From Patescibacteria group bacterium (lineage in GTDB: Bacteria; Patescibacteriota; Minisyncoccia; UBA6257; Colwellbacteraceae): a stretch of 64,000 nt of DNA. Positions 1 to 28,954 of this stretch are shown in pieces (within the stretch, counting starts at the first letter, position 1; each line of letters starts with the position of its first letter). The stretch covers positions 2,546 to 66,545 of the forward strand of contig JAMCRD010000006.1 of NCBI GenBank assembly GCA_023380475.1. Reading direction: 5' to 3'. The notes beneath the pieces were generated by a model. The model was not told the DNA's origin and ran no database searches. It saw nothing but the letters and a program-made list of their open reading frames with translations. A program made the position numbers and the translations under genes.

Positions 1-156
1 AATCCACGCTGTGATACTGTTCCCAGATGGCAACCGCCCTTACGGAGATAGATATATGGCGAACCTGCCATTCGACTATCTCAAACCAAGTACGGCACCC
101 CTGCCTTGGAAATTGCTATGGTAATAGCCAAACCATATCGCCTAGCCGCCAGCAAG

Positions 157-756
157 CTATAAAGATCCGTTGCGCCTAGCCATACGGCGGTAAATTCTGA
201 ACATCACGAACAAAACCACGGCGGTGGCAACGACCGCTGCCAGCAAGGTAAAGATATCAGAGGCGTTGCTCCAGTATATACCGAGGATATAACCGACGAA
301 CAAAATGACGGTCGGCTCAATGACGTCACCGATAATGTCCGGGATTATAAAACTCAACAGAGGCACACCGACAAAACCCGCCAAGAGGTTAACCACTGAA
401 CTCAATGAGCCGGCAAAACGGGAAGAAAAAACAGTGCCAGCTGCATCATGACGCAGCTCCTCTTCGAACTGCACAAAAAAACGCGACTGGTCTATTTTCA
501 GCTTGCGGATGATTGTTGCACCGTACCTCCTGGTCAATAGGTAATCCGCCAAATCGCCCAATACATTGCTCGAAACAGCCACAGCCAACGACTCCCATAT
601 ATTAAAATAGCCCTGGCTGGAGAAGGCTCCTACCGCCAGGAGGGTGGCGCTCATCGGTAACGGCAAGATCATTGCCGCGCCAAAATTGAACACAAAGATA
701 GCTGCATATCTGTAGACGAGGACGTATGACAAAATTGAGCTTAGCAACGAACCCAT
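157..756 (-). CDS. DedA/SNARE-associated (TVP38) family membrane protein
   Basis: 199-aa ORF with multi-pass hydrophobic profile and DedA-like core motifs; family recalled from memory, not searched. Confidence 0.55.
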   Translation of the reverse strand: MGSLLSSILSYVLVYRYAAIFVFNFGAAMILPLPMSATLLAVGAFSSQGYFNIWESLAVAVSSNVLGDLADYLLTRRYGATIIRKLKIDQSRFFVQFEEELRHDAAGTVFSSRFAGSLSSVVNLLAGFVGVPLLSFIIPDIIGDVIEPTVILFVGYILGIYWSNASDIFTLLAAVVATAVVLFVMFRIYRRMARRNGSL

Positions 757-760
757 CTGG

Positions 761-1186
761 CTACTGTACCGGATTGGCCTGTTTTATAAGATAGTCACGA
801 ACCGCCGAACTAACCTCCGCAACAGATGTAGCTGTGCTGGTATGGCTCGCCTTGGCGTAGGCATACACCGACATCTGAGGATATCTCGAATCGGAAACAG
901 ACAAGCTCGTTTTTAGATAATCTTCGGGTAGTTTGAACAGTCTATTAATGTAGTCGAAGGTCATCCAGGAAGTTATCAGGCTGACGTCATCTGCCGTCAG
1001 CGAGCCATGTGATCTGAGAAAATCAGAAACTTCAACCCTCTGCTGATCAATAAACTCGAGCCGTTTCAGATGTACTATCGCAATCGCGAAGAAAACCACC
1101 AGCACTACCAAAGCTATACTCAAAAGGATCACTGCGCATTTGAGATAAGCCCTCGATCTGTCACCATGCGGTTGGTCCATATGCAA
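761..1186 (-). CDS. hypothetical membrane-anchored protein
   Basis: 141-aa ORF with a single N-terminal TM helix; 4 bp upstream of DedA-like gene on the same strand. Confidence 0.4.
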   Translation of the reverse strand: MHMDQPHGDRSRAYLKCAVILLSIALVVLVVFFAIAIVHLKRLEFIDQQRVEVSDFLRSHGSLTADDVSLITSWMTFDYINRLFKLPEDYLKTSLSVSDSRYPQMSVYAYAKASHTSTATSVAEVSSAVRDYLIKQANPVQ

Positions 1187-1286
1187 TAAGTATACCTCTG
1201 GCTGGGACTATCGGGTGCATACACCAGCATCTTTAACAAGAAAGAATTGTATTGTTATAATCGTCATGCTAGGTTGTTTCAGCGCC

Positions 1287-1361
1287 GCTTCCGTCGTTCA
1301 ATGGATAGGACACAAGATTGCGGATCTTGTAATCGAGGTTCGACTCCTCGCGGAAGCACCA
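1287..1361 (+). tRNA. tRNA-Arg, anticodon read as GCG
   Basis: Hand-folded cloverleaf: acceptor GCTTCCG/CGGAAGC, D stem GTTC/GGAC, anticodon stem CAAGA/TCTTG with loop TTGCGGA, T arm CGAGG-TTCGACT-CCTCG, encoded CCA. Confidence 0.55.
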
Positions 1362-1381
1362 TTAATTGAGAAACGGCTGGT

Positions 1382-2503
1382 TTGACCCCCTTTCTGGACG
1401 TACCTCCAGATGTCATAATTAATGTTATGAAAATGTTTAATAAGTTATTTTACGCGATCACGGGCGTGTTGTTGTCGATCGCGATGGCGCCGATTGCCTC
1501 GGCTCATGAAGTATATGTGCTTTCACCCAGTTCAATAGCCAAAGCTGTAAACACACCGTCATTCAGCCTGCTAGGCGTCATATCCCAGAACTTGCACGAA
1601 TTCGTATTCTGGGCGTTCATCGGCATCTTAATAGTCTTCTGCGTCCTCATGATATCAACTTCGCACTTACTCGAACGCAAACTCGATCCGCTTCTGGTAA
1701 AAATTAAGAGGTATGCTCCATTTATTGCGCGATTTACGATCGGCATCTCTTTCCTGGCTTGCGCCTATTATCAGGCGACCTTTGGTCCAGAACTGCCTCT
1801 TTCATCCACATTCGGGTCGATCTCAGGACTAATCGCGGTAGTTTTTGCAGCTTTGGGAGTACTGGCTATAGTCGGCTTGTTGGTTCGACCGGCGGCTTTT
1901 ACTGCCCTTGTTATATTTGGAGCTACTATTTGGGTTCATGGTGTCTACATGCTGACCTACGTCAACTATCTCGGCGAAATCATCGTTCTTCTTATACTCG
2001 GCGCCCACAGCTTTAGCCTAGATACGTATTTCGCCACTAGACGAACCAGGAAAAGAAACGATGACCAGGCATCGCCTACCTGGTTATCAAAAGCAAAAAA
2101 CTATCTGGCGCCGCGCAGCTTCGCTATCCTACGCGTTCTTTTCGGGACAGCTCTGGTCTATGCCTCAGCTTATGCCAAGATCATCCACAACAACCTAGCC
2201 CTCTTTACCGTTGAGCGATACCACCTCGATAAAATATTGGGTTTCGAACCACACTTTCTTGTCCTAGGGGCAGCCCTTGTTGAACTTACAATAGGGCTGT
2301 TCTTCGTCCTTGGATTCGAGATACGTTTCACATCTACCTTTTTGTTATTCTGGCTTACCCTCTCGTTAATCTTCTTTGGAGAAATAGTCTGGCCTCATCT
2401 GATCCTAATCGGCATCCCTATAGCCTATATTTTCTACGGTTACGATCGATACTCTCTAGAAGGGTGGCTCTTTAAAAAGAGCAAGCTTGAGCCGATACTT
2501 TAA
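1382..2503 (+). CDS. multi-pass integral membrane protein with N-terminal signal-like segment
   Basis: 373-aa ORF with about 9 hydrophobic helices; start may instead be the internal Met at 1427 (MKMFNKL...IASA|HEV). Confidence 0.5.
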   Translation: MTPFLDVPPDVIINVMKMFNKLFYAITGVLLSIAMAPIASAHEVYVLSPSSIAKAVNTPSFSLLGVISQNLHEFVFWAFIGILIVFCVLMISTSHLLERKLDPLLVKIKRYAPFIARFTIGISFLACAYYQATFGPELPLSSTFGSISGLIAVVFAALGVLAIVGLLVRPAAFTALVIFGATIWVHGVYMLTYVNYLGEIIVLLILGAHSFSLDTYFATRRTRKRNDDQASPTWLSKAKNYLAPRSFAILRVLFGTALVYASAYAKIIHNNLALFTVERYHLDKILGFEPHFLVLGAALVELTIGLFFVLGFEIRFTSTFLLFWLTLSLIFFGEIVWPHLILIGIPIAYIFYGYDRYSLEGWLFKKSKLEPIL

Positions 2504-2511
2504 TAGGAGCC

Positions 2512-2682
2512 ATGCCCAAATCCGATATTAAAATTCCAATTATCATAGCCATAGCACTACTGGTATTGATCGGCGGTTATTTTTACTATGCGGCATCAAC
2601 CAAGAAATCTGCCGGATCGTTCCACGGGCCAACTAGTGCGCCGCATGTAGTCGGGCCACATACCTTGCCCCCGACAAATTAG
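2512..2682 (+). CDS. small membrane protein (56 aa), not in supplied ORF track
   Basis: AGGAG at 2506-2510 followed by ATG 2512; one TM helix (IPIIIAIALLVLIGGYFYY); starts 9 nt after stop of upstream membrane protein gene. Confidence 0.35.
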   Translation: MPKSDIKIPIIIAIALLVLIGGYFYYAASTKKSAGSFHGPTSAPHVVGPHTLPPTN

Positions 2683-2745
2683 TTGATATTTGCTGGGTGA
2701 AAAGTAGAATCTTTATAGCTGATTCGGTGAATCGACGCCACAGCA

Positions 2746-2819
2746 GCGGGTATCGTATAGCGGCATTATGTCGCCCTTCCAAGGCGAAGATACGGGTTCG
2801 ACTCCCGTTACCCGCTCCA
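2746..2819 (+). tRNA. tRNA-Gly(TCC)
   Basis: Acceptor GCGGGTA/TACCCGC, anticodon stem TCGCC/GGCGA with loop CTTCCAA, T loop GGTTCGACTCC, CCA encoded. Confidence 0.75.
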
Positions 2820-3076
2820 ATCATCTGGAGAACTAAATAGAAGCCACTATCGCGCGATCGTGGCTTCTATTGACTCCAAATCAAAAAATGGTATTCTCCA
2901 CCGTGCAGCATACGTCTCCAACCATCGGTATTCTGGAACAAGGGGCGAAGCACAGCACCATGATGTAAAACCAGAAGGTGATACCTCATGCGAGAGCAAA
3001 CTTTAAGACGTTAATTTTCTGCATGCTATGTGATTTATATTACACGACTTTTGATTCAACAAATTTATTTTGAACC

Positions 3077-4306
3077 TTACTCTGTCTGCAAATTATTGCT
3101 ACTAAACTTTTTCTCGAAGACCATCAACACAACCACAGCCACGAAGGCTGCTGCTGCCCCTAGATAGAAGGGCGCCGACGGCCCGACCCGATCCCACAAT
3201 AGTCCCGCCAGGAAGCTAGCGACAAGAGCCGCAACACCAGAAGTCATGCCATATATGCCGAACGCTCTGCCGCGATAGTCTGCGCTGACCATGTCAGCCA
3301 ACAGGGCCTTTGCCACACCCACATCGATTGCATAATAGATGCCATACAAACCGTAGAGCAGCCAGATCATATAGGCTTGTGAAGCAAGAGCGAATCCGAG
3401 ATACACCAATCCGTACACAACCCAGCCTATAATGATGGTGGGGATACGTCCTATCTTGTCGGAAAGCGATCCTACGGGGACGGCAAACAGGGCATATATA
3501 AAATTGAATAGAGCTATGACCAGTGGGATGGCAAGCAATGTAATACCAAGATTCCTAGCACGGAGGATGAGAAATGCGTCAGATGAACTACCAAGGGTGA
3601 AAATAATGACTATTGCCATAAACAGATAGAATGACTGAGGGAGAGCCGATCTACCTTTCGCCGTTACGATCCGCTGCGGAGCTGGCTGGTTGTGGCCGAT
3701 TTCTCTGACCTTCGTCACCAGAATCAGCAAGGTGAAGAAAAGCGGGACAGCGGTAAATATAAGGATATAGCGATACAACTGTGCGCTGCCGCTAAGGAGA
3801 TACAATAGGCCGAATAATATGAGCGGCCCGGCGACCGATCCGAATGTGTCGAGCATACGCACTATGCCGAAACTCTTGCCCCGTGTCTCTTTTTCAGATG
3901 AACCAGCGATAAGAACGTCTTTAGGTGGGTCTTTTATGCCCTTACCGGCGCCGTCCAAGAACCGCAGACCAAAAATCGAGGCGCTGGAGGTGAAAAACGC
4001 AAGGAGCGGACGGCTTACCATCGAAAAGAGGTAGCCGATGAATATTATTGGCTTGCGTCTTTTAAACTTATCAGATAAGAGTCCGGATATAACGCTGAAT
4101 ATGTAACTGCCGGCGTCAACCAAGCCTTCGGCGATACCGACAAACGTCTTATCAAAACCAAGGACGGTGGTGTAGTAAATCGGGATGATCGGCGTGAAGA
4201 TGTCCTGGCTTATCCCACCGAACAGGCTAAGCAAGCCGATGAAGAAAGGGTTTTTGTTTTTAGGCTTGGAGCTGGGATTCGCCTGCGCTGCAGGCTGGTT
4301 CTCCAT
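3077..4306 (-). CDS. MFS transporter
   Basis: 409 aa, 12 predicted TM helices; MFS-like motif region around GLLSDKFKRRKP between TM2 and TM3. Confidence 0.75.
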   Translation of the reverse strand: MENQPAAQANPSSKPKNKNPFFIGLLSLFGGISQDIFTPIIPIYYTTVLGFDKTFVGIAEGLVDAGSYIFSVISGLLSDKFKRRKPIIFIGYLFSMVSRPLLAFFTSSASIFGLRFLDGAGKGIKDPPKDVLIAGSSEKETRGKSFGIVRMLDTFGSVAGPLILFGLLYLLSGSAQLYRYILIFTAVPLFFTLLILVTKVREIGHNQPAPQRIVTAKGRSALPQSFYLFMAIVIIFTLGSSSDAFLILRARNLGITLLAIPLVIALFNFIYALFAVPVGSLSDKIGRIPTIIIGWVVYGLVYLGFALASQAYMIWLLYGLYGIYYAIDVGVAKALLADMVSADYRGRAFGIYGMTSGVAALVASFLAGLLWDRVGPSAPFYLGAAAAFVAVVVLMVFEKKFSSNNLQTE

Positions 4307-4566
4307 GTCTTTAGGTTATCCACAATACAGAGAATTGAAAAGACCGTCGGGTGTAGTAACATTTAGGCAGGACTAGTGTTATTAAAAAGTAATCAAAAAA
4401 GCGTGAACCAATTTCGGTTCACAATTGCCAAACACTAATCTTAAATTAGTTAACACCTGCTTCTTCTTTTAAAATAAATACTACTCCTAAAAGAGCATTC
4501 TTCGGAATGCTCTTTCTTATTCTCGCTAAGTTTATTTTTAGCCGATTATCTGCTAGAATCACCGTA

Positions 4567-26130: not shown

Positions 26131-27687
26131 TTATAGACTTGTAAAGTTCAACGGACTGCCCCCGTAGTTCAATGGATAGAACAGATCCGTCCTAAGGATA
26201 AAATAGGAGTTCGATTCTCTTCGGGGGCACCAAGTGAGAAATTGCAAATCCCCAGAAGTCGCCGCAGACGGCTGGGCGGCCAGTTCGTATTGTAATTTCG
26301 GGGCAAACGAGAATTCGCGGTTTCGCAAAATATGGTTCGAGCCGATGTTTTTGAGAAATGTTGTCATTGCAATTCCGTTATTCTCTTGAAGCAGTTTTGA
26401 GGCCTGATTGAGTGATAGAACGAACTCTCTCGCTGGTTCGAGCCACGACAGCCCTTTGTCCGCGAAATCGGATATTTTCTCCTGCAATCCGATTTTCCGA
26501 GAAAGCAGCTGTTCCTTCTTCGCGGCGTATTCGGTCTGGAACAGGGCGTCGGCAAGATAGGCATCGAGGAGTTTGGACAGCTTCGCCTCCACGCGGGCAA
26601 CTTCGTTTTTCAGAGTATCAATCTGCGCTCGCGCCTCCTCCCTTGCCTTGTCCCGTTCCGCCTCTAAGAGAGCTAACGCTTTCTCGGTATCATCGTCCGA
26701 CAAAGAAATTTTTTGCAGGAACGATTGTATATGCTCCGTCACTATCTCCTCGCGGAGATAGTGCTTTTCTTGGCACACGCCGCCTTTCTTTGTGCAACGA
26801 TAATAAGCATGGCCTTTCTGCATTTCGGCGGTGATGGAGCTTCCGCACGAGGCGCATTTCATAAGGCCGAGAAAAGCGAAATCATGCCGCTTCGTCTCAA
26901 TCGTCTTGCCGCGCTTTGCGCGCACCTCTTGGCAGAGGTCAAAAAGTTTCTTCGGGACAAGAGGTTCGTGGCGTCCCTCGTACAGTTCTCCGCGATACCG
27001 CATAAGGCCGTAATAGAAGGGGTTGGTTAAAATCTTCTGGATATTGCTAAGCGCAATCTCCTTGCCGAGGTTGCCTTTCAATCCTTGCTCTCGGCACCAA
27101 TCTACGAGGTCATGGAGCGTATAGCTTCCTATGGCGTAAAGCGCGAACAGCTTGCGGACAAGCGGGGCTTTCACGGGGTCAACATCAATCCCTCGCGTCC
27201 TCGGGTTGTTCAAGTAGCCAATCGGTGCCCAGCTCGGCCATACGCCGTTCCGTATCTTCTGCCGCAAGCCACGCTTTACGTTCTCCCGCAGGTTGTCCAC
27301 GAAGTATTTTGACTGCCCGAAGGCAATGTTGAGCATAAAGAGGCCTTGTGGTGTCGGCTCAAACCAGAACGTAGGGAACTTGAGGGACTTAATCAGGCCT
27401 CGGTCAATCATGTGGATGACCCGCCCGCCGTCCACGGAATTGCGGGCGAGGCGATCTGGGTGCCACGAGAGGATGCCCTGTGCCTTGCCGCGTTCCACGA
27501 ATGACAACATTTCAGCGAACTTAATACGGCCGGGTTCTTTGGCGGTCTTTGCCTCCTCAAAGGAAGCGACAATTTCAAGTTTTTCTTTGGCGGCAAATTC
27601 CCGAAGCTCCACCAGTTGAGCTTCTATGGACAGCACCTGCCCGTCGTCTTCTTCCGTTGATTTGCGAGCGTAGATTATGTATTTCAT
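26131..27687 (-). CDS. large serine recombinase (resolvase catalytic domain, recombinase domain, zinc ribbon, coiled coil)
   Basis: N-terminal YARKST..Q catalytic serine motif and ILSWHPDRLARN; CASCGS...CTKKGGVC zinc ribbon; coiled-coil region; last 28 codons are antisense of tRNA-Arg, so true stop is likely upstream. Confidence 0.85.
   Translation of the reverse strand: MKYIIYARKSTEEDDGQVLSIEAQLVELREFAAKEKLEIVASFEEAKTAKEPGRIKFAEMLSFVERGKAQGILSWHPDRLARNSVDGGRVIHMIDRGLIKSLKFPTFWFEPTPQGLFMLNIAFGQSKYFVDNLRENVKRGLRQKIRNGVWPSWAPIGYLNNPRTRGIDVDPVKAPLVRKLFALYAIGSYTLHDLVDWCREQGLKGNLGKEIALSNIQKILTNPFYYGLMRYRGELYEGRHEPLVPKKLFDLCQEVRAKRGKTIETKRHDFAFLGLMKCASCGSSITAEMQKGHAYYRCTKKGGVCQEKHYLREEIVTEHIQSFLQKISLSDDDTEKALALLEAERDKAREEARAQIDTLKNEVARVEAKLSKLLDAYLADALFQTEYAAKKEQLLSRKIGLQEKISDFADKGLSWLEPAREFVLSLNQASKLLQENNGIAMTTFLKNIGSNHILRNREFSFAPKLQYELAAQPSAATSGDLQFLTWCPRRESNSYFILRTDLFYPLNYGGSPLNFTSL
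26148..26222 (+). tRNA. tRNA-Arg(CCT)
   Basis: Acceptor GCCCCCG/CGGGGGC, anticodon loop GTCCTAA (stem has one G-A mismatch), T loop AGTTCGATTCT, CCA encoded; its last 6 nt (GCACCA) begin repeat X. Confidence 0.65.
26217..26315. repeat. inverted repeat X (99 bp), left copy
   Basis: Exact reverse complement of 27714-27812; spans tRNA-Arg 3' end and encodes residues RNREF...LTWC of recombinase ORF. Confidence 0.9.
26316..26339. repeat. inverted repeat Y (24 bp), left copy
   Basis: Exact reverse complement of 27923-27946; contiguous with X on the left, but separated from X' by Z on the right. Confidence 0.8.
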
Positions 27688-27691
27688 CGTG

Positions 27692-27711
27692 TTAAAAATT
27701 TTCTTTTCCCA
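27692..27711. repeat. 20-bp inverted repeat, left copy (ttaaaaattttcttttccca)
   Basis: Exact reverse complement of 27947-27966; forms the leader 4 nt upstream of the recombinase start codon. Confidence 0.85.
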
Positions 27712-27713
27712 GT

Positions 27714-27812
27714 CGAAACCGCGAATTCTCGTTTGCCCCGAAATTACAATACGAACTGGCCGCCCAGCCGTCTGCGGCGACTTCTGGGGATTTGCAATTT
27801 CTCACTTGGTGC
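27714..27812. repeat. inverted repeat X' (99 bp), right copy
   Basis: Exact reverse complement of 26217-26315; in-frame on + strand it re-encodes the same 33-aa peptide. Confidence 0.9.
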
Positions 27813-27897
27813 AGGACAATTGAGATAGCTCGAACGGTTTTTGACACCCCCACCGAGGCTAAATCTGAAACGCCCGACGTGGCGGAGCCGCACCGAT
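27809..27897. repeat. inverted repeat Z (89 bp)
   Basis: Reverse complement of 28659-28747 with one mismatch; overlaps X' by 4 nt (GTGC). Confidence 0.85.
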
Positions 27898-27922
27898 AAA
27901 GACCGCCAAAGAACCCGTTCCT

Positions 27923-27946
27923 AACATCGGCTCGAACCATATTTTG
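27923..27946. repeat. inverted repeat Y' (24 bp)
   Basis: Exact reverse complement of 26316-26339. Confidence 0.8.
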
Positions 27947-27966
27947 TGGGAAAAGAAAATTTTTAA
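27947..27966. repeat. 20-bp inverted repeat, right copy (tgggaaaagaaaatttttaa)
   Basis: Forms the leader 4 nt upstream of ATG 27971 of the small AT-rich gene; identical to the recombinase leader. Confidence 0.85.
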
Positions 27967-27970
27967 TCAT

Positions 27971-28141
27971 ATGAAAAAAGCATTATTAATTATTTGTGAG
28001 TTTATAGCGACGGTAGTTATTTTCTTATTGATTTATAAATTTTTTAATTTATCAACAGCTTTACCAATATGGATTGTAATCGTCATCATTTTGATAAAAA
28101 CGACAATTAGCCACGACGGTAAAGACAAAGACGGGGCATAG
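27971..28141 (+). CDS. small two-TM membrane protein (56 aa)
   Basis: ATG at 27971 (track ORF begins at a TTG inside Y'); very AT-rich coding sequence unlike the surrounding genome. Confidence 0.4.
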   Translation: MKKALLIICEFIATVVIFLLIYKFFNLSTALPIWIVIVIILIKTTISHDGKDKDGA

Positions 28142-28203
28142 GATTTTGAATATTGGTCAATCTGTTCCGCACCAATAAAGACACAAAGAAATAATTTTTA
28201 ACC

Positions 28204-28626
28204 ATGAAAAGATTAAAAAGTTTACTAGTGGTTTGGCTAGAAATTTTGGTCGGCGGCCTGATTTTAATTTTTGTGCCAGACATCAGATGGTTTCTGTTTT
28301 ATCTTTTAGTGATTGTTCTTATGACTTCGGTTATGCGAGCGGATTATCTGCGAAAGGTCGTCAGGGTGTTCCAAGTGGAGAATGGGGTTAATCTCGCTAG
28401 CATAGCCAAGAAACTCAACATATCGGAAGCAGAGATTCAGAAGTCCAGAGATGACCTTAGCGACAGCTTGCTGGACGACCAAAGAAAATCTTTGCATAAG
28501 GATATGGAAGAGCTTGGAATTTCCAGCCCCGAACGCTTTTACAGAAATCCAGTGGACGGCCTATCAGATACCGAAAGGGGTAAGAAATTCATGGATAAAG
28601 TTTTTAAGGACTTCGGGGATAACTAA
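28204..28626 (+). CDS. membrane protein with HTH-like segment
   Basis: 140 aa; two N-terminal TM helices, then VNLASIAKKLNISEAEIQKS resembling a helix-turn-helix; AT-rich. Confidence 0.4.
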   Translation: MKRLKSLLVVWLEILVGGLILIFVPDIRWFLFYLLVIVLMTSVMRADYLRKVVRVFQVENGVNLASIAKKLNISEAEIQKSRDDLSDSLLDDQRKSLHKDMEELGISSPERFYRNPVDGLSDTERGKKFMDKVFKDFGDN

Positions 28627-28658
28627 AATTTGCCGCCAAAGAAAAACTTGAAATTGTC

Positions 28659-28747
28659 ATCGGTGCGGCTCCGCCGCGTCGGGCGTTTCAGATTTAGCCT
28701 CGGTGGGGGTGTCAAAAACCGTTCGAGCTATCTCAATTGTCCTGCAC
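28659..28747. repeat. inverted repeat Z' (89 bp)
   Basis: Reverse complement of 27809-27897 with one mismatch; begins 33 nt after stop of 28204-28626. Confidence 0.85.
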
Positions 28748-28782
28748 TACTAATAATCTGCTAATTGAGCATATTATTAGTA
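28748..28782. repeat. 10-bp perfect palindrome TACTAATAAT/ATTATTAGTA with 15-nt spacer
   Basis: Seen directly; sits between Z' and tRNA-Arg(TCT). Confidence 0.6.
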
Positions 28783-28786
28783 GACC

Positions 28787-28858
28787 GTCCCCATAGTTCA
28801 ACGGATAGAACATCTCCCTTCTAAGGAGATGATTGAGGTTCGATTCCTCATGGGGACA
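28787..28858 (+). tRNA. tRNA-Arg(TCT)
   Basis: Acceptor GTCCCCA/TGGGGAC, anticodon stem TCTCC/GGAGA with loop CTTCTAA, T loop GGTTCGATTCC. Confidence 0.8.
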
Positions 28859-28859
28859 C

Positions 28860-28930
28860 CGGGCTGTAGTGTAATGGTAGCACGAGTCTTTTGGGAAGAT
28901 TTAGTCCGAGTTCGAATCTCGGCAGCCCGA
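28860..28930 (+). tRNA. tRNA-Pro(TGG)
   Basis: Acceptor CGGGCTG/CAGCCCG, anticodon loop TTTGGGA with G37, T loop AGTTCGAATCT; starts 2 nt after tRNA-Arg. Confidence 0.75.
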
Positions 28931-28954
28931 CAAAATAAAGTAGACCCATCTAGG

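Follow-up and report, generated by a model that had tools for sequence, protein, structure and literature searches.

Organization of the element

The window analysed here is the whole stretch of 64,000 nucleotides (nt) from contig JAMCRD010000006.1 of a Patescibacteria group bacterium, and the element under study occupies positions 26231-28747 of this window. Besides a small cargo segment, the element, about 2.5 kb in length, contains a minus-strand gene for a large serine recombinase (LSR); it is bracketed by tRNA-Arg(CCT) on the left and by a hairpin, followed by tRNA-Arg(TCT), on the right (Table 1). The tRNA genes were called with ARAGORN, domains with Pfam and RNA families with Rfam, and protein families were also compared with NCBIfam. 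Over 20 kb, the window was 100% identical to a deposited contig of a metagenome-assembled genome (MAG).

Table 1. Features of the LSR element and its borders (window positions; ORF, open reading frame; att, attachment site)
Feature	Position	Strand	Remarks
tRNA-Arg(CCT), target, putative attB left half (T)	26158-26232	+	ARAGORN; Rfam tRNA, 59 bits
GCAC overlap at putative attL (tRNA/X)	26227-26230	+	About tRNA positions 71-74; crossover predicted within
X, element left end, putative attP P' arm	26227-26325	+	Antisense of LSR codons 455-487
Y	26326-26349	+	Antisense of LSR codons ~447-454 (KNIGSNHIL); pairs with Y'
LSR ORF, 518 residues as present	26131-27687	-	Pfam domains, ORF list, homologs
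LSR, conserved 487 codons	27687 down to 26227	-	Final 31 codons of the ORF are read-through on antisense tRNA
n1-g-n2 inside LSR gene (LSR nt 88-157)	27531-27599	-	Repeat pairing
n1'; g palindrome; n2'	27568-27599; 27551-27567; 27531-27550	-	Inside LSR gene
U', LSR 5' leader/translation-initiation region	27692-27711	-	Repeated ahead of cargo
X'Z, intact attP-type junction	27714-27897	+	X' 27714-27812, Z 27809-27897; GTGC at 27809-27812; inverted relative to attL and attR
Cassette frame	27898-27966	+	n2 27898-27917, 5 nt, Y' 27923-27946, U 27947-27966
Cargo	27971-28626	+	ORF1 and ORF2
ORF1	27971-28141	+	56 residues, hydrophobic, no family match
ORF2	28204-28626	+	140 residues, N-terminal hydrophobic, no family match
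n1, right end of cassette	28627-28658	+	Copy of LSR nt 88-119
Z', element right end, putative attP P arm	28659-28747	+	GCAC at 28744-28747; Z'/flank as putative attR
Right flank, putative attB right half (F)	28748-28860	+	Hairpin 28747-28783, tRNA-Arg(TCT) 28787-28860

The element contains several paired modules. X and X' form an inverted pair of 99 nt with 100% identity; Y, which is contiguous with X, pairs exactly with Y' over 24 nt; and Z and Z', of 89 nt, differ by a single mismatch (27880/28676). An earlier reading of the same DNA, made from the letters alone (the original prediction), had described X and Y as contiguous on the left and X', Z and Y' as following one another on the right in an order that is not the reverse complement of X-Y. 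These positions were confirmed, the full right-side order being X', Z, a 20-nt module with 5 further nt, and Y'. That reading had missed three further exact pairs, n1, n2 and U.

Within the LSR gene, n1 and n2 are separated by a 17-nt spacer, g (LSR codons ~41-46), which is an imperfect palindrome (GCTTCC TTTGA GGAGGC) and a perfect one in a relative, L002 (GCTTCC TTTCA GGAAGC; numbers beginning with L are those of the loci examined). The position of g is exactly where the Z-bounded unit breaks n1...n2 in the cassette frame. Conservative site-specific recombination at g was considered as the source of the n1/Z' and Z/n2 joints and rejected, since the 17-nt g is absent from these joints. A folded single-strand or RNA structure using all the repeats was likewise rejected: the X, Y and U pairs cross one another (order 1-4, 2-5, 3-6) and some 188 bp of stem separate Y'U from its partners, so that the modules do not make a simple three-way junction.

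Junctions sharing the GCAC core

The original prediction placed the tetranucleotide GCAC at every module boundary. We found it at three of them, tRNA/X, X'/Z (where it reads GTGC on the plus strand) and Z'/flank, which is so because the X' and Z arms overlap by these 4 nt; it does not lie at the joint between X and Y, between Z and the next module, at either edge of Y' or at the edges of n1, n2 and U. By itself, the tetramer carries no significance: both strands of the window contain 282 copies, fewer than the shuffle mean of 402, and 17 of them fall within the element. Significance comes instead from the comparison with relatives, in which the pattern of junctions recurs.

Specifically, the three window junctions read as follows: the left one, attL-type, tRNA...TTCGGGG/GCAC/CAAGTGAG, entering X; the internal one, attP-type and read on the minus strand, ...AATTGTCCT/GCAC/CAAGTGAG, passing from Z' into X; and the right one, attR-type, ...AATTGTCCT/GCAC/TACTAATAATC, passing from Z' into the flank. 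GCAC is the only sequence common to all three. Judged by their composition, they look like the attL, attP and attR sites of a serine integrase, with Z'.X as the candidate attP and the tRNA end joined to the flank as the candidate attB. This half-site logic, in which the tRNA end and X, Z' and X, and Z' and the flank are joined through one core, was kept in 38 of the 38 relatives having complete X and Z pairs. The prediction that GCAC joins half-sites from the tRNA, X, Z and the flank thus agrees with the window junctions and with all of these relatives.

In the relatives, the core follows the 3' end of the target tRNA: it is GCAC(CA) in most, CCAC(CA) where tRNA-Ala is the target, and GAGC, GCAG or GGAGC in others. 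Most overlaps are 4-6 nt long, and no long direct repeats flank the elements. On the tRNA side, the putative attB contains the conserved T-arm, and its flank side is unconserved. X opens with the bases that restore the ...CCA end of the tRNA, and in the window the terminal GCACCA of tRNA-Arg(CCT) falls within X; the crossover would lie within the 4-nt GCAC and can be placed no more narrowly. Five complete elements (L005, L006, L010, L036 and L078) have a left junction that adjoins sequence without an ARAGORN tRNA call, and the targets may not be exclusively tRNA genes.

The recombinase gene and its C-terminal tail

The original prediction invoked a site-specific recombinase, and the gene between the repeats indeed encodes one by its domains: Resolvase (PF00239, 5e-21), Recombinase (PF07508, 1e-15) and Zn_ribbon_recom (PF13408, 1e-7). 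Its N-terminal sequence is YARKST...Q. The ORF is free of stop codons through X and the entire antisense tRNA, giving a product of 518 residues. More than 7500 homologous proteins were retrieved at E<1e-30 with 70-93% identity, all from Patescibacteria where named. The best NCBIfam matches, XisF and CcrB/A/C, were far under their cutoffs, and the PDB gave only weak matches, to the A118 and SPbeta proteins. No protein in the phage and plasmid collections was more than 31% identical to the LSR, which forms a separate clade. When the protein was tested as an IS607-type transposase, NF033518 scored 23 bits against a cutoff of 110, the protein having LSR architecture instead, and no transposase besides the LSR was found in the element.

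Homology ended exactly at ...FLTWC, residue 487, which is the outer end of X and the position of GCAC. Past WC, about 105 of 110 homologs continued as translations of an antisense tRNA (...RESNS, QDSNLRPT, ELNSH...) or stopped within 1-2 residues. X'Z read in the LSR frame gives RTIEIARTVFDTPTEAKSETPDVAEPHR, with a C-terminus (RTIEIARTVF...AEPHR) that we regard as the natural one. Its stop codon, TAA at 27897-27899, begins at the final base of Z, and the tail encoded by Z is 28 residues long. This tail was conserved across the family (consensus SILELVRTHFAACGGEE.PPRKFGKAAEPHR; SILELVRTHF...AAEPHR), the LSR frame stayed free of stops across Z in about 85% of 56 loci, and protein P0005 and the protein of L167 read through X'-Z and carry the Z tail. 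X'Z therefore represents the natural 3' end of the LSR gene, with the crossover point within that gene: since X is antisense to the final 33 of the conserved codons and Z supplies the natural tail, the putative attP lies inside the LSR 3' end, and integration would exchange the tail for read-through on the antisense tRNA.

Conservation of the architecture among relatives

LSR relatives with 63-93% amino acid identity were present in at least 550 species-representative genomes from many classes of the candidate phyla radiation (CPR). From the at least 550 loci found by the scan, 80 genome loci were fetched, together with several ENA and JGI contigs. The LSR was the sole conserved gene of the family, which, as far as seen, appears confined to Patescibacteria.

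The same order of modules was found in more than 60 independently assembled relatives at many different tRNAs. Read in the direction of the LSR gene, a typical relative has the arrangement flank'/Z n1' cargo' U' Y n2' Z'.X U LSR[...n1 g n2...Y' X']/antisense tRNA. The module boundaries fell at the same LSR coordinates in every locus (n1, 87-119; n2, 137-156; Y', 1334-1360; X', 1360-1460; U, -44 to -17), and the module architecture of L003 and L004 was identical to that of the window. About 20 tRNA species were targeted, the LSR end overlapping the tRNA 3' end by about 5 nt. The recurrence of one module order at many tRNAs in diverged relatives indicates that the architecture is inherited with the element. 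The claim that the scrambled order records several past events at this locus is therefore not borne out.

The two X arms of an element were 99% identical (median) and the two Z arms 100%, whereas between elements both shared only about 65% identity. In the 20-nt module n2, at least eight synonymous variants were found, and the cassette copy matched the LSR copy in 33 of 34 elements. Some copying process therefore presumably keeps the copies within an element identical; the likeliest would be template switching or gene conversion between the inverted repeats, or their recurrent replacement from sibling copies of the LSR. The codon-position bias of the X differences between elements was uninformative.

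Two side observations concern relatives. The contigs of L028, L032, L033, L045, L053, L065, L070, L073 and L084 start within the n1-g-n2 region of the LSR gene (residues 23-57), which suggests assembly breaks or real variation there. In a groundwater time series, a single element with metallophosphatase cargo occurred in at least 24 contigs (L085-L094; JGI 33000250xx/33000080xx), with a diverged Z-like tail in its LSR (PLFENARTFFERN) and no adjoining tRNA. CPR-rich groundwater, with the Crystal Geyser and Hainich sites as examples, was the source of L085-L094 and of the Hain contigs.

Cargo and the cassette frame

Between the Z arms, the cargo segment has the order n2-Y'-U-gene(s)-n1, which as a circle is the same module order as in the LSR gene (U, n1, n2, Y'). 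The cassette-frame n2, Y' and U are sense-strand copies of LSR nt 137-156, 1338-1361 and -24 to -5, respectively. The segment thus resembles a miniature LSR gene that has lost its body by deletion and has cargo in place of its first 29 codons, catalytic serine included. As copies of LSR-gene segments, Y, n1, n2 and U would serve as short homology blocks for inversion or deletion rather than as recombinase cores.

In the window, one frame holds two small ORFs. Cargo genes of the relatives encode a radical SAM enzyme, NAD(P)HX dehydratase, methyltransferases, a short-chain dehydrogenase/reductase (SDR), DUF218, metallophosphatase and HNH proteins, and many further cargo proteins are unknown or secreted. 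It was also observed that Y'-U-ORF1 (27923-28141) is in frame with the LSR frame of Y' (...NIGSNHILWEKKIFNHMKKALL...), and that in several relatives the reading of the Z tail continues through n2, Y' and U (...AEPHRSKPQKNPEKNIGSNHILILGEENFLI).

Isomers, deletion derivatives and bare cassettes

Flipping the LSR segment at the window locus would create a junction reading tRNA-X-ACTGGGAAAAG. A scan of metagenomes for such flipped-orientation junctions (tRNA T-arm, CACCA, X and then U) yielded at least 120 loci. One of them, L167, is a complete flipped isomer with the order tRNA-like end/X-U-LSR-X'Z-n2-Y'-U-cargo-n1-Z'/flank, whose X arms are 102 nt long and 100% identical and whose LSR has 547 residues including the Z tail. 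Within the family, the window and about 65 loci have one orientation and L167, L002 and L095 have the other, these being different elements and not one population.

Other loci represent different degrees of loss. Six (L107, L112, L116, L130, L135 and L211) retain only LSR residues 1-53 and then pass into Y'-U-cargo, as expected of an n2-n2 deletion product. Most of the at least 120 tRNA/X-U loci had no LSR and read tRNA/X-U-gene-n1-Z'/flank, the product of a U-U deletion. Among the loci listed, 43 were clean cassettes of 630-1410 nt with 30 unrelated cargo families and the same core logic, and some cassettes were followed directly by another X, forming tandem cassettes with Z'/X junctions. The recombinase-less loci, found among the relatives only, keep attL and attR; the window copy itself has the LSR.

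The dominance of the window orientation among LSR-bearing loci is explained by the fact that the modules there run opposite to their counterparts in the LSR gene and exchange between them cannot delete the LSR. The flipped orientation would be rare because there the modules become direct repeats and the LSR is quickly lost. Variants with other arrangements were also found. In L058, three cassettes are joined via contiguous n1-g-n2-Y'-U; in L072, U-cargo is fused to the LSR body; and in L095, cargo segments lie on both sides of the LSR. All three fit recombination at these modules. The last locus (1-4377), which has no tRNA, reads Z n1' cargo1' U' Y n2' Z'X U LSR Y' X'Z n2 Y' U cargo2 n1 Z'X Y n2' Z'.

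The same cargo was also present at different tRNAs, in loci that have the LSR and in loci that lack it (L081/L125, 96%; L097/L208, 90%; L074/L206, 80%). This recurrence of a cargo, and of the element type, from one tRNA to another is our basis for regarding the elements as probably mobile.

A probable integrated copy of a conserved cassette element

The data are best explained if window positions 26231-28747 represent an integrated copy of a small, conserved, tRNA-targeting LSR cassette element, whose layout is the design of the element and not the outcome of local scrambling; we put the probability of this reading at about 0.85. In the mechanism that we propose, the LSR would recombine attP (Z'X) with a tRNA gene at its 3' end, and the crossover would fall within the few bases that the two have in common. 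Here these are GCAC, which comprise the end of the acceptor stem, the discriminator base and the first C of CCA. Recombination would yield tRNA/X, or attL, in which X restores the ...CCA end, and Z'/flank, or attR, after which the LSR ORF would enter the antisense tRNA. The reaction presumably proceeds via a 2.5-kb circle holding two inverted copies of attP. Because the element has a second, inverted attP (X'Z), the LSR segment lies between inverted X arms and the cargo between inverted Z arms, and either segment could flip with the types of junction unchanged; the X-bounded segment might do so through the LSR or through homologous recombination. The window orientation, with the cassette modules inverted relative to the LSR gene, would be stable. 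In the flipped orientation, deletion between the direct repeats at n2-n2 or U-U would remove the LSR, leaving bare tRNA/X-U-gene-n1-Z' cassettes that could presumably be mobilized in trans.

Taken further, the window element may represent one autonomous member of a CPR-specific, integron-like cassette system run by the LSR, in which single genes in a constant X-U-gene-n1-Z' frame are stacked at many tRNA 3' ends and moved in trans, and in which flipping of the invertible LSR segment turns the short LSR-derived modules from inverted into direct repeats and so leads to loss of the LSR. We put this extension forward tentatively, at somewhat below even odds.

Several observations weigh against the integrated-element reading. 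It leaves unexplained why 99 and 89 nt are duplicated rather than half-sites of about 25 nt, and how the identity of a 20-nt module is kept up. Unusually for an LSR site, attB is unconserved in its right half. Minimal overlaps disagree on the crossover dinucleotide (AC in L054, GC in L081, GCA in L037, and L010 also discordant), probably as a result of later mutations. The string expected of an empty tRNA-Arg/flank site, TTCGGGGGCAC/TACTAATAATC, was absent from the JGI metagenomes, and no circular contig of the element was recognized among the sequences examined. In addition, the bare cassettes could have arisen in situ by deletion and not by movement in trans.

Alternatively, repeated use of GCAC at this one locus might have joined half-sites over several inversions or integrations, as the original prediction supposed. 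All three half-site combinations are present and the LSR segment occurs in both orientations within the family, which speaks for such a history, but the order of all modules recurs at other tRNAs in elements of 63-93% identity, conservative site-specific recombination could not create the duplications, and the edges of Y, n1, n2 and U have no core, so that we consider this improbable. An assembly artefact, with the inverted modules produced by an inverted chimera (e.g. from multiple displacement amplification) or by a mis-join in a de Bruijn graph, would account for an X repeat of exactly 99 nt and 100% identity, 99 being a common k-mer size, and for the many related contigs that break within the element. 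However, more than 60 contigs show the architecture, and they come from various studies and were built with different assemblers (MEGAHIT k127/k141, SPAdes NODE contigs and older scaffolds); X arms in the relatives range from 97 to 106 nt and other modules from 20 to 130 nt; and the protein sequence of the Z tail is conserved, which leaves an artefact with hardly any probability. The occurrence of the layout across studies and assemblers, together with the identical sequence in a second deposited contig, the MAG contig, in our judgement excludes both an artefact and a purely local history.

A more serious competitor is a programmed switch, in which the LSR flips the X-bounded segment (tRNA/X with X'/Z) in the manner of Hin or Gin, toggling its own tail between the tRNA-fused and the natural Z form and the element between a stable and a deletion-prone state. 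The half-sites are inverted, so that a flip regenerates the same junction types, and both orientations and a conserved Z tail were observed. On the other hand, LSRs are normally limited to attP with attB, or to attL with attR in the presence of a directionality factor; a 99-nt perfect repeat could flip equally well by homologous recombination; and one orientation is strongly dominant among LSR-bearing loci. A switch of this kind is thus unlikely, though less so than any other alternative. A single-stranded circle that folds Z'X on X'Z into a duplex attP, with one strand exchanged as in the CTX phage or at integron attC sites and the unexchanged arm remaining as the internal inverted attP, would predict exactly tRNA/X...X'Z...Z'/flank and a fixed orientation. 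Serine recombinases cut both strands in concert, however, and this conflicts with such a route; attL and attR are no different in the many cassettes with no inverted attP inside them, and loss of the LSR by deletion in the flipped orientation accounts for the orientation bias. We regard it as very improbable. Two adjacent transposons with terminal inverted repeats, one bounded by X and the other by Z and moved by a cut-and-paste transposase, would explain why long inverted repeats bound each segment. The element has no transposase except the LSR and no target-site duplications, its outer junctions obey att-site logic at a fixed tRNA position, and no X- or Z-bounded unit was seen alone with target duplications at a non-tRNA site; this explanation we consider scarcely tenable.

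Neighbouring features and annotation

The hairpin on the right (28747-28783) is near-perfect with 16-nt arms (CTACTAATAATCTGCT/AGCATATTATTAGTAG) and begins at the final base of the element. Before insertion, it would have directly followed tRNA-Arg(CCT), and it is possibly a terminator or processing signal of that tRNA. Beyond it, tRNA-Arg(TCT) and tRNA-Pro(TGG) abut (28787-28931), with base 28860 common to both; CCA is encoded by some of the window tRNAs and not by others. The Rfam scan for known RNA families returned only tRNAs and one sub-threshold match, 'Plastid-ycf2 5UTR' (28787-28859, minus strand; 38 bits against a gathering score of 65.7), which is antisense to tRNA-Arg(TCT) and almost certainly spurious. 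A scan for promoters and terminators gave no signal above chance within the element. In the deposited MAG record (L001, 8606-8827), an opposite-strand ORF of 73 residues was called and the 518-residue recombinase ORF was not among the called genes, probably because it crosses the tRNA gene.

Comparison with known systems

The LSR has the same set of domains as the recombinases of phage A118, Bxb1, phiC31 and SPbeta (SprA) and the transposon recombinases TnpX/TndX, with weak matches to those of A118 and SPbeta. As in these systems, attP and attB half-sites appear to be joined through a few common central bases, with no long flanking direct repeats. The present family differs from them in forming a clade of its own (no more than 31% identity to anything in the collections of phages and plasmids), in the size of the element (only about 2.5 kb), and in having a putative attP in the recombinase's own 3' coding end, a second, inverted attP, many tRNA targets and an unconserved right half-site.

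In the ssrA islands of Dehalococcoides, a CcrB-like serine integrase, DsiB, acts in integration at the 3' end of the tmRNA gene; the islands are tandem, and att-flanked units without an integrase have been explained by accretion (PMC3146451). They are large, with a six-gene integration module, a 20-bp direct repeat and a single site (PMC3146451). The family described here shares with them a serine recombinase at the 3' end of a structured-RNA gene, tandem units and att-flanked units lacking the recombinase, and differs in its single-gene cassettes, overlap of about 4 nt, many target tRNAs and inverted, duplicated attP. The tycheposons of Prochlorococcus are cargo elements that insert and stack at tRNA genes in streamlined genomes, a minority of them with large serine recombinases; most have tyrosine recombinases, and they are flanked by partial tRNA repeats, contain replication modules and are much larger (10.1101/2020.12.28.424599). 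Here, too, cargo elements stack at tRNA genes, but the recombinase is an LSR and the element is only about 2.5 kb long.

Like integron cassettes, the cassettes are mostly single, diverse and promoterless-looking genes in a constant short frame, stacked head to tail with recombination sites between them, and the recombinase is encoded at the platform. Single-gene arrays were seen in relatives only (L058, the tandem Z'/X junctions and the 43 single-gene cassettes). Unlike integrons, the family has a serine recombinase and not the tyrosine recombinase IntI, shows no evidence of attC hairpins, uses fragments of the recombinase gene as the frame, and has no single attI platform, its cassettes lying at many tRNA 3' ends.

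In the SSV1-type integrases of archaeal fuselloviruses, attP lies inside the integrase gene, whose ORF is therefore partitioned or altered when the element enters a tRNA gene. There, a tyrosine recombinase gene is split in two, whereas here only the C-terminal tail would be exchanged and a spare 3' end kept. The Hin and Gin switches and the R64 shufflon carry segments between inverted half-sites; hin lies inside its invertible segment, and the shufflon uses the tyrosine recombinase Rci. As in Hin/Gin, the 99-nt X arms are inverted, both orientations were found and the recombinase gene lies inside the segment. In contrast to Hin/Gin, whose small serine invertases depend on an enhancer and Fis, the recombinase is a large serine recombinase of 487 residues, no enhancer is known, one orientation predominates, and the sites would serve integration as well. 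No system among those compared has all of the following: a minimal element with an LSR, an attP at the coding end of the recombinase itself, an additional inverted attP, cassette frames derived from the recombinase gene, and many tRNAs as targets. No description of this element family was found in the open-access literature, where absence is not proof, and the family is apparently undescribed.

Implications

Three properties make this serine integrase unusual and would be relevant to integrase engineering: the location of attP at the coding end of its gene, the retention of a spare inverted attP, and the apparent use of many tRNA 3' ends with an unconstrained right half-site. The locus also calls for caution in annotation, as an LSR ORF that crosses a tRNA gene can go uncalled. 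The genomes of the CPR, or Patescibacteria, are tiny, and descriptions of mobile elements from them are few. The present family is very large and unusually conserved, and carries or leaves hundreds of single-gene cassettes at tRNA genes; it may therefore be a main route of gene gain in the CPR. If the cassette system with loss of the LSR is real, it would amount to a self-limiting delivery of cargo followed by its fixation in very small genomes.

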